Of a stretch of 54,359 bases of DNA, positions 33,582 through 48,155 are shown piece by piece. A program made the translations under genes and the position numbers. Every line of letters begins with the position of its first letter. Positions within the stretch are counted from its first letter, which is position 1. Source of the stretch: Candidatus Iainarchaeum sp. (GTDB lineage: Archaea; Iainarchaeota; Iainarchaeia; Iainarchaeales; JAZDDZ01); contig JAZDDZ010000010.1 of NCBI GenBank assembly GCA_043809245.1, forward strand, positions 1 to 54,359. Direction: 5' to 3'. The notes below the pieces were generated by a model. The model ran no database searches. It saw nothing but the letters and a program-made list of their open reading frames with translations, and was not told where the DNA came from.

Positions 33582-34247
33582 ATGGCTAAAGAAAAGGCTT
33601 CAGGCGATGCAAGCATTATTGAAATAATCCAGAAAATGGTGAGCGACGGCGAAAGCGAGCAGAAAATAATACAAACACTTCAAGAGTTAGGCGTTGAACC
33701 TGACAAGGCAAAACGCCTATTGCTTTTAGGCCAGGCTGACACGTTTGCATTACTGCGCTCGGAGATAGCCAAAATTGTTTCAACGCAAATGGAGAAAGAA
33801 AAAGCGGGAATGCTTTCATTCGCAGAAGAACAGGCAAGCACGGCAAGCGAAAAATCAAAGGAAAAAATAGAGAAAGCGGTAATGGCTGACATAAGGCAGT
33901 ATGAAAGGGACATCACAGGGCAAAGCCGAACATACCAGGAACAGATTAGCGACACTGTCCAAAGAATGGCTGAGTTAAGCGAAAAAGTGAGGGCAAAGCT
34001 AAACGAGTTAGGCGAAGCGGTTCAGGAAACACAGGCAGACATGGATGAATTAAAGGTTAAAGGAGTTGGAAGCAGAAACGTTTGGATAAGCAGGCTATTG
34101 CTTGTTTTGGGAATTGCCTTCTGCTTATCAGACCTCTATCTTTTCTTCACAGTGTTCCAAGGCATTTTCTCTGTTGACACGCTAATACTGACAATCATCA
34201 TGGCATTGATTGGAATAACAATGCTGTTTGTTGCGACTATTGTTTGA
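33582..34247 (+). CDS. Coiled-coil protein with two C-terminal TM helices
   Basis: Heptad-rich region followed by two hydrophobic helices. Confidence 0.7.
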   Translation: MAKEKASGDASIIEIIQKMVSDGESEQKIIQTLQELGVEPDKAKRLLLLGQADTFALLRSEIAKIVSTQMEKEKAGMLSFAEEQASTASEKSKEKIEKAVMADIRQYERDITGQSRTYQEQISDTVQRMAELSEKVRAKLNELGEAVQETQADMDELKVKGVGSRNVWISRLLLVLGIAFCLSDLYLFFTVFQGIFSVDTLILTIIMALIGITMLFVATIV

Positions 34248-38327: not shown

Positions 38328-38756
38328 CTATTTTTTTCTTATTCTTTGGACAGATTCTTCCAATGGAACAACCAGTTCCCCGGTCCTGTAAAAGAGGTAA
38401 ACTCCTATCAGCACTGCGAGCCAGAAAAAAAATGCGGCAATCGGGCCAAGCAAAGCAGAGCCCATCTGGCGCGGAGTCAAAGAATCCTGTGAAACGCTGA
38501 CGCTGAAGCCAAGGTTGCCTGCCATCTGCTGGCAGTCAAAAAAAGCGTAACTCTGCAAATTTTCCCATGGCTCCTTGTCAAAAGAGGAAAGGCAGGTGTT
38601 AACCGCTTTAACATTGTCCCAGGAAGTGTACATGTCTGTTCCGCCCTTTACAACCAGTATTATTGCAGCAAAAAGCAGAAAAGCGCCAATAAGCTTTGGG
38701 ATGTGAACGTCTTTTCCCGCAATGCGCCAGTTAACGACTCTCTTCAATGAAATCAC
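38328..38756 (-). CDS. Hypothetical two-TM membrane protein
   Basis: Two hydrophobic helices around a Cys-containing loop. Confidence 0.65.
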   Translation of the reverse strand: MISLKRVVNWRIAGKDVHIPKLIGAFLLFAAIILVVKGGTDMYTSWDNVKAVNTCLSSFDKEPWENLQSYAFFDCQQMAGNLGFSVSVSQDSLTPRQMGSALLGPIAAFFFWLAVLIGVYLFYRTGELVVPLEESVQRIRKK

Positions 38757-38842
38757 CTAAAACTATTATGCGTTAGGGGTATTTAAAGCTTTCTTCGGAG
38801 AGGTTTTTTTAGCGCAAAAAGATTGGAGAAAAGCTTTTTTTC

Positions 38843-38978
38843 GGGCCCGTGGTCTAGCGGCTATGGCCCTTTCTTTGAGGAAGCCTTTTTTGAGCCTGAA
38901 CTCAGACATGAGTACAAAGAGGGGCTCTTGAAAGTTGGTAAGGATAAATCTGAGAAGTTTTCAAATCCCCGGCGCACC
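38843..38978 (+). pseudogene. Decayed tRNA-like gene with a BHB-type intron; identity uncertain
   Basis: GGGCCCGTGGTCTAGCGGCTATGG gives acceptor 5' strand and D-arm; BHB TTTC-TTT / GAAA-GTT defines a 60-nt hairpin intron (38876-38935); TTCAAATCCC T-loop remnant; T-stem and acceptor 3' strand are broken. Confidence 0.6.
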
Positions 38979-39029
38979 GGAAATTCACCCCCGAAAGCGA
39001 ATATAAACAAAAAATAAATTATTTTAGGT

Positions 39030-39944
39030 ATGACCGAGTTTCTGGATGTGCCCTCAAGAGAGCAGAGAAGAATCTTGCTACTTTTCAAGAACAAATTAAA
39101 TTTAACATGGAATGAATTAGCAAAAATTATGGGAATAAATAAAAGCACATTATTTTTTTATTGCAGCGATGCAATCAGGGCCCCGATTTACAGGATTCTC
39201 AAACTATGTGAGCTTACAGGAGTCCCTGTGAAAGAATTGGGGAAGTTAAAAACAACTTTTATAAAATACGGAAAACGGCTACAAATCAGGAAACCGCCTA
39301 TGGATTCTGTCCAGCTGGCAGAACTATGCGGAGTTCTTCTGGGTGACGGGTGTATTTATTCAAAAAACAACGGATTATGCATCAGCGGGCACCAAATACA
39401 CGACTACAAATATTTTACCGAAAAGATTTCGCCAATGTTTGAAAACCTCTTTATGCAAAAACCATCAATTTACAAATCAAGAAATAGTAAGTCACTAAGG
39501 CTAGTTTTATACAGTAAAGAAGTGGCAGAATTCCTAAGTAGTTCGATTTTTGTGGTTGGAAACAAGAAAAAAGCAAAAGCCCGAATACCTGAATATTATT
39601 TTAATAATCCGGAATTACTTATTGCCTGTTTGAGAGGGCTTTCAGACACTGACGGGAGCATATGCCCACACCCCCATACAAAAGTCATGTATAGCATCAC
39701 GATAAAGATTCCTGATCTTTTGAATTCAACAATTGAAGCCTACAGAAAAATCGGCTTCCCGGTAAAAGTTTCTGGCTATAATATCTATTTTTACGGGGAA
39801 AAATTGCTGAGTAGATTTTTTAGCGAAATAGGAAGCAGCAATCCAAAGCACGTAATAAAATGGCAGCAATTCAAAAAGACCGGAAAAATGCCCCGCTCCA
39901 CGGAATCAGAACAAATGCTAAAAAATCAGCTTTACCGGAATTAG
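39030..39944 (+). CDS. Free-standing double-motif LAGLIDADG endonuclease-family protein with an N-terminal HTH
   Basis: LTWNELAKIMGI HTH; LAELCGVLLGDG and ACLRGLSDTDG motifs; IGSSNPKH C-terminal motif. Confidence 0.88.
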   Translation: MTEFLDVPSREQRRILLLFKNKLNLTWNELAKIMGINKSTLFFYCSDAIRAPIYRILKLCELTGVPVKELGKLKTTFIKYGKRLQIRKPPMDSVQLAELCGVLLGDGCIYSKNNGLCISGHQIHDYKYFTEKISPMFENLFMQKPSIYKSRNSKSLRLVLYSKEVAEFLSSSIFVVGNKKKAKARIPEYYFNNPELLIACLRGLSDTDGSICPHPHTKVMYSITIKIPDLLNSTIEAYRKIGFPVKVSGYNIYFYGEKLLSRFFSEIGSSNPKHVIKWQQFKKTGKMPRSTESEQMLKNQLYRN

Positions 39945-39994
39945 TGCCAGTAGCAAAATTATAAAGGGTTTGCGTAGAAGATTTATTTGATACT

Positions 39995-40121
39995 GGGCCC
40001 GTGGTCTAATGGTGTGACGCTAAATCATTTTGTCTTTATTCGGACTATGGTGCGGAACCCTTACAAATGGAATATCCATTAGGTTCGGTGGAGGTCGGCG
40101 GTTCGATTCCGCCCGGGCCCA
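39995..40121 (+). tRNA. tRNA-Val(TAC) with two introns: 29/30 (40023-40057) and canonical 37/38 (40066-40085)
   Basis: After removing both introns, a 72-nt cloverleaf with stem CTACC/GGTGG and loop CTTACAC; intron 2 has a strict BHB (CTTA/TAGG; bulges CAA and TTC); intron 1 has a relaxed BHB. Confidence 0.88.
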
Positions 40122-40185
40122 TATCTTAAACTTTTCATTTTCTGAAAAGGCATTCTTATTAACCCCTTTAACCTATTTTTTTCAA

Positions 40186-41961
40186 ATGAAGAGATTTTTT
40201 GCGGTTTTAATTGCATTGGCTTTCCTCTGCGCTTTCGCGTTCTCCGCTGAACTGGAGGTTCTGCCAAGCCAAATACAGGAAATGGACTTGAATGTAACGC
40301 TTGGCGCGCACGGGGGCTTTTCCGGAACAGTGAGCACTGCTGACAGAATGGAGGTGAAAATGCTCACGCTTCAGGGAAGCGCAACCCAGAAAATAGAGGG
40401 CTTAAGCGAAAGGCTTTTGATTGGAGGCAAAGAGTTTTTGCCGAAAACCCATGAAACCACGGGAGAAAAAAAGTACGCGGTGTTTGAAATTGAAAGGCTT
40501 TATGATTTTGTTTCTTCGCCAGAATTTGAAGTCAAAATAAACGCCAGGGTAAAGACAAGCGCGCTGATGGAGTTAGGCGAAGACTTTAATTTGAGTGAAA
40601 CTGATTTTTCCGCGCAAAAGGAATTCCTCAAACAATCGGATTACATTGAGGTAAACGACCAGGCGCTGAGAAGCAAGGCACAGCTGGAATTCCAAAGCGA
40701 TTCGGGATTGGAGACAATAAGGGGGATAACGGAATGGGTGAACGACAACATAGAGTATGATTTTGCGGATTACTATGCAGGAGTGTGGAGCGCAAAGCAG
40801 ACCTATGAGAGCGGGAAAGGCGTATGCGATGAATTCAGCAATTTGGCTGCCGCATTCCTGCGCATCAAAGGAATTCCCGCAAAATACGTGTCAGGGGTAT
40901 CATTTGATGGCAAAAGGTTCGGCAACCACGGATGGTTAGAGGTTTTCCAGCCTGGAAAAGGATGGATTGGGGTTGACCCAACTTACGGCGAAGCCGGTTA
41001 TCTTGACGCAACGCATGTTGCTGTTGCAAAAACAGTTGACGTTAACAGCATTGAAAACCTTGTAATCCTCACTTATTCAGTTGGGGGGTTAAAAGTGGAG
41101 TCTTCGCTGGATGAGCCGGAGATTGAAATAATTTCATCAAAGCAGTTTGATGGATTGCTTGGAGTGGAGCTTGAAAAGCCTGACCGGCTTAACTTGGGGG
41201 AAGCCTTTGAATTCAAGGCAACCGTGAAAAATTTGCAAAGCAAAAGCATTATAGTGCCGTTAGAGCTGGTGCTGCACAACGACTTTTCTTATAGCGAAAG
41301 GGCAAGGCTTGAATTGTTCAAGCCATTGGAGGAAAAGGAAATTGTCTGGAATGCGGTTGCGCCAAAAGAAGGAAAGCCGAATACTTTCGCTGAATACGAG
41401 GCAATTTTTTTGGCTCCCGACAAAAAGTTAACGGAAAAATTAAGCGTTTACTCCGAGGAAGGCGCTGGGGAGCCCGTTTCATTGGTCAAGGTGCTGGACG
41501 TCAGCCCATTTGTTGACGCGAACACTGTTAAGGTATCCATTACGCTTGCAAACAGCGGGGAAAAAGACGGAAAAGCAGAAATAGCGATAACAATGGAGGG
41601 AAAGACAAGCAATTACTCGGAGGAAGTGAAGGCTTTAACGCAGAAAAAAATAACCTATTCGTTCAAAGGCGTTTCAATGGGAACAATTTTGCTGAAAGTC
41701 GTTGCGGATGAAACCAAGAGCTTTGAAATAACTGTTCCCGAAAAAAAAGAGGACGTGAAAGTCAAAGAGCTTGCGGGAGAGGAAAGCAGCGTTGAGCCGT
41801 TGAATAACGGAAAAGAAGAGGACCTTTTCACTGCCTTTTTCAACGACGAATTCCTCATTGCGGTAAGCCTTGTTTTGGCTGCAGTTGTAATTCTCGCCTT
41901 CTTTTTAAAGGCATTTTTTGACAGGGAAAAAATGAAGCCGATTTTTCCGGAAATGCCTTGA
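40186..41961 (+). CDS. Secreted, membrane-anchored transglutaminase-like (Cys protease) protein
   Basis: Signal peptide; GVCDEF, HGWLEV and WIGVDPT catalytic triad; C-terminal TM helix. Confidence 0.88.
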   Translation: MKRFFAVLIALAFLCAFAFSAELEVLPSQIQEMDLNVTLGAHGGFSGTVSTADRMEVKMLTLQGSATQKIEGLSERLLIGGKEFLPKTHETTGEKKYAVFEIERLYDFVSSPEFEVKINARVKTSALMELGEDFNLSETDFSAQKEFLKQSDYIEVNDQALRSKAQLEFQSDSGLETIRGITEWVNDNIEYDFADYYAGVWSAKQTYESGKGVCDEFSNLAAAFLRIKGIPAKYVSGVSFDGKRFGNHGWLEVFQPGKGWIGVDPTYGEAGYLDATHVAVAKTVDVNSIENLVILTYSVGGLKVESSLDEPEIEIISSKQFDGLLGVELEKPDRLNLGEAFEFKATVKNLQSKSIIVPLELVLHNDFSYSERARLELFKPLEEKEIVWNAVAPKEGKPNTFAEYEAIFLAPDKKLTEKLSVYSEEGAGEPVSLVKVLDVSPFVDANTVKVSITLANSGEKDGKAEIAITMEGKTSNYSEEVKALTQKKITYSFKGVSMGTILLKVVADETKSFEITVPEKKEDVKVKELAGEESSVEPLNNGKEEDLFTAFFNDEFLIAVSLVLAAVVILAFFLKAFFDREKMKPIFPEMP

Positions 41962-42032: not shown

Positions 42033-42202
42033 GCGACCGTAGTCTAGTGGTTAGTTTTCACACGGGCAACGGTTAAAGCTTGGTGAACTAATGAATAAGA
42101 AAAATATTTGTGTTGTTCAACAAGCTTTGTGTCTGGTGGAAAACCCATAAAGGATATGGCCTTGCCAAGGCTATGACCCGGGTTCGACCCCCGGCGGTCG
42201 CA
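42033..42202 (+). tRNA. tRNA-Gly(GCC) with a 98-nt D-loop intron (42053-42150)
   Basis: Acceptor GCGACCG/CGGTCGC; arm TGGCC-TTGCCAA-GGCTA; BHB GTGG/CCAT with bulges TTA and AAA; 72-nt mature form. Confidence 0.92.
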
Positions 42203-42245
42203 TTCAATAATTTTGCTTTGCATTTGAAGCAGAGAGTTGAAATAA

Positions 42246-48038: not shown

Positions 48039-48155
48039 GCAGCCGTCGTCTAGTGGTTAGTTTTCACACGGGCGGCTTTAAGCACCTGGTGGAAAACCCA
48101 TAAAGGATCAGAGCCTTCCAAGCTCTTGACCCGGGTTCGAGTCCCGGCGGCTGCA
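48039..48155 (+). tRNA. tRNA-Gly(TCC) with a 45-nt D-loop intron (48059-48103)
   Basis: AGAGC-CTTCCAA-GCTCT arm; same BHB and intron ends as Gly(GCC); 72-nt mature form. Confidence 0.92.

Follow-up and report, generated by a model that had tools for sequence, protein, structure and literature searches.

A free-standing HTH-LAGLIDADG gene directly upstream of a two-intron tRNA-Val in Candidatus Iainarchaeum: a candidate tRNA-targeting homing unit

The window analyzed here is the complete 54,359-nucleotide contig JAZDDZ010000010.1 (C10) of the Candidatus Iainarchaeum sp. assembly GCA_043809245.1; in what follows, C labels denote contigs of the same assembly and L labels homologous loci in other genomes. 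Between positions 38843 and 40121, the window carries a short 5′ fragment of a tRNA-Val gene (the relic), an open reading frame (ORF) for a protein with a helix-turn-helix (HTH) domain and two LAGLIDADG motifs, and a tRNA-Val(UAC) gene interrupted by two introns (Table 1). With moderate confidence, we regard this segment as one copy of a widespread unit in which a free-standing HTH-LAGLIDADG gene is lodged directly 5′ of a tRNA gene, an assessment that covers jointly the homing mechanism, the stranding of the relic and the immunity conferred by an intron, all of which are set out below. The relic and the resident tRNA begin with the same 14 nt, GGGCCCGTGGTCTA (38843–38856 and 39995–40008), and an 11-mer within this sequence also opens the tRNA-Val(GAC) gene on contig C4; the repeat exceeds chance expectation because it represents the conserved 5′ end of tRNA-Val genes. 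Apart from the tRNA parts, no DNA repeats of the region 38760–40130 were found elsewhere in the genome, nor was any integrase or transposase detected within the 1.3-kb unit. A first-pass annotation of this DNA had already noted the 14-bp repeat, an intact LAGLIDADG ORF lying outside introns and a tRNA-Val with two introns, and all three observations held in the analyses described here.

Table 1. Features of the locus at 38843–40121 and the support for each
Feature	Coordinates	Strand	Support
Relic: tRNA-Val 5′ fragment, acceptor 5′ strand and complete D-arm, positions 1 to ~25	38843..38867	+	14 nt in common with tRNA-Val at 39995
Hairpin between the relic and the ORF promoter	38873..38934	+	Fold z-score −1.0
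Putative promoter region of the ORF: CGCACCGGAAA (38973–38983) and TATA-like GAATATAAAC (38999–39008)	38973..39008	+	
Free-standing gene for a 304-aa HTH and double-LAGLIDADG protein, putative homing endonuclease	39030..39944	+	Pfam, alignment, AlphaFold, PDB matches
tRNA-Val(UAC) exon 1, positions 1–29	39995..40022	+	In silico splicing; Rfam
Intron 1, 35 nt, non-canonical 29/30, anticodon stem, relaxed bulge-helix-bulge	40023..40057	+	
tRNA-Val(UAC) exon 2, 8 nt, anticodon TAC	40058..40065	+	
Intron 2, 20 nt, canonical 37/38, strict bulge-helix-bulge	40066..40085	+	
tRNA-Val(UAC) exon 3, positions 38–73	40086..40121	+	Rfam, in silico splicing

The ORF is intact, and its product matched HTH_3 (aa 21–70, E 3e-6), LAGLIDADG_3 (E 1.3e-5) and, more weakly, LAGLIDADG_2 (E 0.0057) in Pfam. 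The motifs GDG (D106) and DTDG (D206, D208) were invariant in all 12 aligned members of the family. The AlphaFold model (predicted local distance difference test score, pLDDT, 87; predicted template modeling score, pTM, 0.71) showed a duplicated fold of two helix-strand modules. In a Foldseek search of the PDB, I-Tsp061I ranked first (2dch; E 5.8e-9, target-based template modeling (TM) score of 0.71), ahead of intein endonucleases, I-DmoI (TM 0.69) and I-SceI, with the regulator WhiA ranking lower (8dy9_I, 3hyj, 3hyi). No Rfam family covered the ORF, which is therefore considered free-standing; an intein context was not seen either, with no search aimed at inteins, and NCBIfam holds no model for the HTH-LAGLIDADG family. 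The protein is thus a putative homing endonuclease.

Downstream of the ORF, Rfam RF00005 matched over 39995–40121 with 40.7 bits and a 66-nt insertion, and joining the three exons in silico yielded a perfect 72-nt tRNA-Val(UAC) cloverleaf in ARAGORN. This gene, the sole tRNA-Val(UAC) of the assembly, was missed by ARAGORN run without introns and mis-parsed when introns were allowed; the introns were placed by hand from the predicted fold and the Rfam pairing. Intron 2 was recognized by the scanner as a strict bulge-helix-bulge (BHB) motif, with a central helix of 4 bp and outer helices of 3 and 5 bp. The same strict scanner found no match at intron 1, which, as solved by hand from the fold, has a UA|A bulge, a central helix of 3 bp plus one mismatch and an inner helix of 5 bp; its junction can be set at 29/30 or 28/29, since a run of A lets it slide by one A. 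No group I intron was detected by Rfam over 38600–40400 at E ≤ 10. By eye, the 3′ end of intron 1 (~40040–40057), CGGACTATGG, resembles a degenerate 3′ region of the tRNA-Val D-loop and D-stem, for which the relic has CGGCTATGG, and it might be a leftover of a recipient gene inside the intron.

Matches to the protein were collected from the own genome, from genomes of the same order and from a wide scan. The own genome held five further matches, three of them beside tRNAs or tRNA pieces: a full-length copy at C47:54575-55510(−) that runs into a two-intron tRNA, a second full-length copy at C47:64083-65078(+) that has tRNA-Thr(CGT) on one side and an orphan tRNA 3′ piece on the other, and a fragment on C3 that overlaps tRNA-Thr(GGU). 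A copy on C2 without the second motif lies ~870 nt from a tRNA, and the match on C8 is inside an 844-aa frame. Among 41 genomes of the same order, 27 had matches and 14 had none, with zero to nine copies per genome. In ten of the 12 best same-order loci, a tRNA overlapped the ORF end or lay at most 51 nt from it (the one at L006 recognized by eye only), and in the remaining two a tRNA was found at most 75 nt from the ORF start.

The wide scan, which included one genome per species, returned at least 502 relatives, of which the best 80 loci were analyzed. These came from metagenome-assembled genomes labelled Woesearchaeota, Iainarchaeum, Nanoarchaeota, Pacearchaeota, Aenigmatarchaeota, Micrarchaeota and Hadarchaeum, with a further group of 24 loci from candidate phyla radiation (CPR)-type and other bacteria (L056, L061–L098). 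In 66 of the 80 loci, the start of a tRNA fell between −90 and +40 nt relative to the ORF stop, compared with a chance expectation of ~0.4% per ORF; 59 of these tRNAs were on the same strand, and the seven on the opposite strand were all tRNA-Gly. Rfam revealed hidden tRNAs shortly past the ORF or match end at L047, L063 and L070. The stop codon was commonly the TAG located at tRNA positions 13–15 or 8–10, the reading frame thus running into the tRNA. All 24 bacterial members were directly 5′ of a tRNA-Ser (GCT, TGA, CGA or GGA), and neither introns nor relics were present there. A mirror layout, with a complete tRNA upstream and an orphan tRNA 3′ fragment at the ORF end, was observed at C47:64083-65112 and at L010, where a direct repeat of ~27 nt from the tRNA 3′ part flanks the ORF.

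Based on a FastTree phylogeny of 89 members (three loci with ORFs shorter than 200 aa were dropped), we also monitored how the isotype of the neighboring tRNA was distributed over the family. With 73 members labelled by eight isotypes and 16 rows without a label, the isotype changed seven times on the tree, the minimum possible, compared with 36–48 times in 200 shuffles. The nearest homologs of the window protein were located on tRNA-Val(UAC) (L019, L020, L023, L024, L025, L027, L031 and L032). Outside the unit, the flanks of nine Val-clade loci were unrelated in 151 of 153 pairs.

Introns in the neighboring tRNAs were located with a home-made parser based on four landmarks (acceptor, T-arm, anticodon stem and D-stem), in which a 5′-region intron is an insertion before position 27; it was used in place of brute-force deletion combined with ARAGORN, which gave hundreds of solutions per gene. 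A 5′-region (D-loop-region) intron of 25–43 nt was found in 16 of 33 resolved same-strand abutting archaeal tRNAs, compared with three of the 24 tRNAs that lie in these loci without abutting the ORF (one-sided Fisher p = 0.004) and with four of 41 in this genome (p = 0.0002), p-values that overstate the case because related genomes are not independent. These introns occurred next to family ORFs on at least seven tRNA species, at site 21/22 in most members, while canonical introns were common in abutting and non-abutting tRNAs alike.

Besides the window, repeats of the tRNA 5′ part were present upstream of the ORF at L019, L038, L041, L059, L060, L076 and L094, and the downstream tRNA bore an intron at all eight loci. 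Within the 80 loci, relics accompanied seven of the 16 tRNAs with a 5′-region intron and none of the 17 without one (p = 0.003). Five of the seven relics matched the spliced tRNA for 3–6 nt past the exon junction and ended at 24–30 nt, where the TATA-like region of the ORF follows directly. Since the match continues past the intron site, such relics are 5′ fragments that lack the intron and have their break immediately behind the D-stem. The window relic ends at ~25, in the same place as the others and four nt before its 29/30 intron. Overall, the association of these genes with tRNAs, with 5′-region introns and with further relics, together with the isotype-specific clades, is in line with the idea in the first-pass annotation of a tRNA-targeting homing unit that carries an intron-bearing tRNA and leaves the displaced one upstream.

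With regard to the sequence between the relic and the ORF, the motif CGCACCGG[AC]AA occurred in 13 copies in the genome, mostly 55–75 nt before an ATG and with TATA-like boxes after it, and the CGCACCGG motif was also present upstream of family ORFs at L003, L006 and L012. Copies of CGCACCGG[A/C]AA are often followed by ..CACTC.. and a TATA-like box. Kept across families of the order, the motif is probably a shared promoter or regulator site; it was considered as the left boundary or operator of the unit and rejected, as it precedes many unrelated genes. The hairpin at 38873–38934, whose stretch occurs once in the genome, probably forms the left arm of the insertion.

The relic itself was identical in 22 of 24 nt to tRNA-Val(GAC) on C4, and its first 23 nt agreed without mismatch with the start of tRNA-Val(UAC) genes that lack introns in a groundwater metagenome run, a comparison based on 23–24 nt bridging to the T-arm. 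The likeness to tRNA-Val, perfect over the first 23–25 nt, stops abruptly at about position 25, which argues for a breakpoint rather than even decay, and judging from the sequence the relic is best read as a ~25-nt breakpoint fragment of tRNA-Val. The first-pass annotation had instead proposed a decayed whole tRNA with a 60-nt BHB intron and the anticodon TGG. This account extends the relic from 38843 to ~38985 and assumes that the unit landed beside an intron-bearing tRNA whose redundant copy then degenerated. BHB-like geometry does bound 38876–38935, and the T-loop-like TTCAAATCC is spaced about as expected if 60 nt are taken out. The geometry, however, does not stand clearly above shuffled sequence, where such motifs are nearly as common (nine in the 188 nt compared with a shuffle mean of 4.3, and 4.5% of shuffles reach nine), and the minimum free energy (MFE) fold of the hairpin has an unremarkable z-score (Table 1). 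After the relic, no 3′ anticodon-stem strand, T-stem or acceptor 3′ strand was found, and no tRNA was matched on the relic by Rfam at E ≤ 10; the TGG reading fails because no 3′ stem strand follows, the fragment being of Val type and tRNA-Pro(UGG) being encoded on C27. The supposed acceptor remnant belongs to the general CGCACCGG promoter motif, and in five other loci the relics are 24–30-nt fragments fused to the ORF promoter region. We therefore consider a decayed whole tRNA rather unlikely. Also proposed had been a split tRNA, of which the relic would be the 5′ half and which would be completed by trans-splicing with a 3′ half from another locus. Machinery for split genes is plausible here because tRNA-Pro(UGG) on C27 is a split or permuted gene whose leader and trailer are complementary over 10 nt. 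No partner was found, though: with the exception of a 26-nt tRNA-Arg(TCG) duplicate, no unassigned T-arm plus acceptor complementary to GGGCCCG was present, nothing in the genome was complementary to 38869–38960, and other loci supply Val(UAC), Val(GAC), Val(CAC) and Pro(UGG), so that this origin appears exceedingly improbable. The tRNA-Arg duplicate, on C16, was considered as a partner and rejected. Likewise rejected was an arrangement in which a giant intron, with the ORF inside it, would connect the relic with a 3′ exon, because the sole downstream acceptor 3′ strand belongs to the complete tRNA-Val.

Two further explanations concern the protein rather than the relic. In WhiA, the LAGLIDADG motifs are degenerate and lack the catalytic acids, and the HTH domain is C-terminal. 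The family could thus consist of domesticated, non-mobile WhiA-like DNA-binding factors that regulate or mark the adjacent tRNA, with the adjacency being conserved synteny; the fusion of an HTH to LAGLIDADG domains, the presence of WhiA among the fold matches and the use of one isotype per clade, with every bacterial member on tRNA-Ser, would suit such a role. However, both catalytic Asp are invariant and the HTH is N-terminal, copy number varies from zero to nine with none in 14 of 41 same-order genomes, degenerate copies exist in this genome (on C2 and C3), and the ORFs are flanked by tRNA fragments in unrelated contexts, which makes a domesticated regulator improbable. Alternatively, the unit may have moved by another route, either by an integrase or transposase acting in trans or by segmental duplication, the LAGLIDADG protein being a passenger or accessory and the intron a scar and not a shield. 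Such a route is invoked in the model for Caldiarchaeum subterraneum, with a recombinase and pNOB8-like integration (PMC3293823), and tRNA 3′ ends are duplicated without an ORF between them on C16, while 3′ fragments flank the ORF at L010 and on C47. Against it, the unit contains no integrase or transposase, the genome has no repeated arm comparable to region ‘a’ of Caldiarchaeum, and the protein clade is tied to the tRNA isotype, an argument that the protein itself sets the site. We regard this route as quite improbable.

The reading that we favor, and hold somewhat more firmly than not, is that a tRNA-targeting, free-standing homing endonuclease travels with an intron-bearing tRNA 5′ part, where DNA cleavage and its position, the repair route and the immunity by the intron are reconstructed from the arrangement of the loci. 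The enzyme would recognize an intron-less tRNA-Val gene and cut it in the region from the D-arm to the anticodon stem, at about positions 22–30. The break would then be repaired from a donor that carries promoter, nuclease gene and tRNA 5′ part with its intron; where homology exists only on the tRNA 3′ side, repair would proceed leftwards, copying the intron, then exon 1 and the nuclease gene, and the copied tract would be joined to the broken end of the recipient. The 5′ fragment of the recipient gene, itself without an intron, would be left stranded upstream as the relic at 38843–38867. The intron at 29/30 (21/22 in most other members) would split the recognition site and render the resident tRNA immune, while the host splicing endonuclease would restore a normal tRNA. 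Signs of mobility are the zero to nine copies per genome, the degenerate copies, the tRNA fragments at eight loci and the unrelated flanks; no empty-site allele was found in metagenome contigs or sequencing runs.

Several observations weigh against this scenario. The isotype-specific clades could also be explained by long vertical linkage, and the related genomes are non-independent samples. An empty-site search in metagenome contigs by way of the downstream gene gave one relative with 33% identity and no empty-site allele. No RNA sequencing run was listed as containing the locus, and three DNA sequencing runs contained small shares (0.07–0.08), with one contig keeping the ORF end together with the two-intron tRNA; in those runs there were no joints removing the ORF from the sequence of this organism, and the apparent ‘skips’ were tRNA-Val genes of other organisms. 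At the locus, the relic and resident exon 1 diverge after 14 nt, ~105 nt of unexplained sequence with the hairpin lie between relic and promoter, and TTCAAATCC at 38960–38968 would fit a longer decayed tRNA. As to the introns, two of the 35 abutting tRNAs were left unresolved by the home-made parser and the own tRNA was solved by hand; D-loop introns also occur away from any family gene, in Val(GAC) on C4, in Gly(GCC) and Gly(UCC) of the window and at C47:85540; and 17 of the 33 abutting archaeal tRNAs and all 24 bacterial ones lack a 5′-region intron. Because half of the archaeal and all of the bacterial partners are without them, introns cannot be the general source of immunity. Finally, the splicing endonuclease family PF01974 had no match, even at E ≤ 10, in this 91.8%-complete assembly, and it was present in 18 of 20 same-order genomes, with exactly one match each in open frames of 97–197 aa, mostly ~170–197 aa. 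This genome nevertheless has many tRNA introns.

Other tRNA genes of the genome were also inspected. The tRNA-Pro(UGG) on the minus strand of C27 (~33850–34060) is permuted or split, its 3′ half (leader, anticodon-stem 3′ strand, T-arm and acceptor) lying ~130 nt upstream of its 5′ half, whose 10-nt trailer is the exact reverse complement of the leader; both ARAGORN and the Rfam genome search missed this gene. Of the remaining valine isoacceptors, Val(GAC) has a 40-nt D-loop intron and is located on C4, and Val(CAC) is located on C37. Two hidden tRNAs lie on the plus strand of the window, one at 42033–42203, read as Gly(GCC) and called Met by ARAGORN (C10:42032), and one at 48039–48155, read as Gly(UCC) and missed by ARAGORN. 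Their D-loop introns agree over ~18 nt at the start and ~23 nt at the end and differ in length by ~55 nt, and no family ORF adjoins either gene. Further ARAGORN miscalls were Val(tac) on C4, which is GAC, and Tyr(ata) on C18, which reads Ile(UAU). At C16:36560-36814 (−), a 26-nt duplicate of the tRNA-Arg(TCG) 3′ end follows the gene at a distance of ~150 nt; the DNA between them has no ORF, and the duplicate looks like an old integration or repair scar. The same pair of tRNA-Ser(TGA) and tRNA-Leu(GAG, 40-nt intron), with identical gene lengths and similar spacing, was observed at C31:3579-5047 and C32:1009-2562, and may reflect assembly redundancy or a recent duplication.

In comparison with known systems, the introns that encode I-Tsp061I and I-DmoI are rRNA introns. 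These two enzymes, the best structural matches, have the double-LAGLIDADG fold in common with the window protein, but are intron-encoded (PDB titles for I-Tsp061I), whereas the present gene is free-standing, has an extra N-terminal HTH_3 domain and lies beside a tRNA. Among free-standing homing endonucleases, SegB belongs to a phage host, uses GIY-YIG chemistry and involves no introns, and we know of no tRNA fragment relics reported at SegB. As here, its gene is located among tRNA genes in T4-type phages (PMC13096335). In collaborative homing, phage group I introns are spread by a free-standing endonuclease (PMC2790892). In common with that system, the nuclease gene is outside an ORF-less intron and adjoins the interrupted gene, and the intron site is near the presumed cut, no more than ~4 nt from the relic breakpoints; unlike it, the introns are short, host-spliced BHB introns (20 and 35 nt), the target is an archaeal tRNA, and the cut at the intron site is itself deduced.

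The closest architectural likeness is that of tRNA-Thr(GGU) of Caldiarchaeum subterraneum, where a new intron at 24/25 accompanies a 5′ fragment of the tRNA and a 1.87-kb insertion whose ORF lies just 5′ of the tRNA (Sugahara et al. 2012, PLoS One, PMC3293823). Both loci have a direct repeat of the 5′ fragment upstream, a same-strand ORF immediately 5′ of a two-intron tRNA and a new intron close to where the D-arm ends (24/25 in Caldiarchaeum, 29/30 here, 21/22 in most relatives). The 813-bp Caldiarchaeum ORF was classified by SVMProt as a putative DNA-binding or recombination protein, with LAGLIDADG absent from the main text, and the insertion includes a 545-bp arm (region ‘a’) that is repeated six times in that genome, whereas none is repeated here (PMC3293823). 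The likeness is one of architecture. By analogy, the unit fits a combination of known kinds, namely free-standing homing endonucleases, collaborative homing and tRNA-disrupting insertions, with their logic possibly transposed to host-spliced BHB introns. In full-text literature searches, no account was found of an association between LAGLIDADG genes and tRNA genes in DPANN archaea or CPR bacteria.

More broadly, HTH-LAGLIDADG genes could be a DNA-level vehicle that installs and spreads non-canonical BHB introns in archaeal tRNA genes, at 21/22 in the D-loop and at 29/30 in the anticodon stem, an extension that we put forward tentatively and with less than even confidence. Each clade would target a single isotype lacking the intron, with the cut falling close to the intron site, and intron and gene would be copied in together during repair; later decay of the gene would leave orphan D-loop introns, the stranded pieces could be raw material for split or permuted tRNAs, and the family would colonize tRNA-Ser in CPR without introns. 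The arrival of archaeal tRNA introns at non-canonical positions is an unsolved problem, and a 2026 preprint on these introns states that ‘how they arrive remains open’ (10.64898/2026.10.13.758758). The present family, large (at least 502 relatives in one scan) and spanning DPANN archaea and CPR bacteria, is a nuclease family physically tied to tRNA genes, to 5′-region introns and to intron-less fragments that resemble repair scars. The unnamed Caldiarchaeum ORF of 2012 may gain a likely identity, if it is a member of the HTH-LAGLIDADG family, and the question of intron arrival becomes testable at the bench, by asking whether the enzyme cuts the intron-less gene at the intron site.

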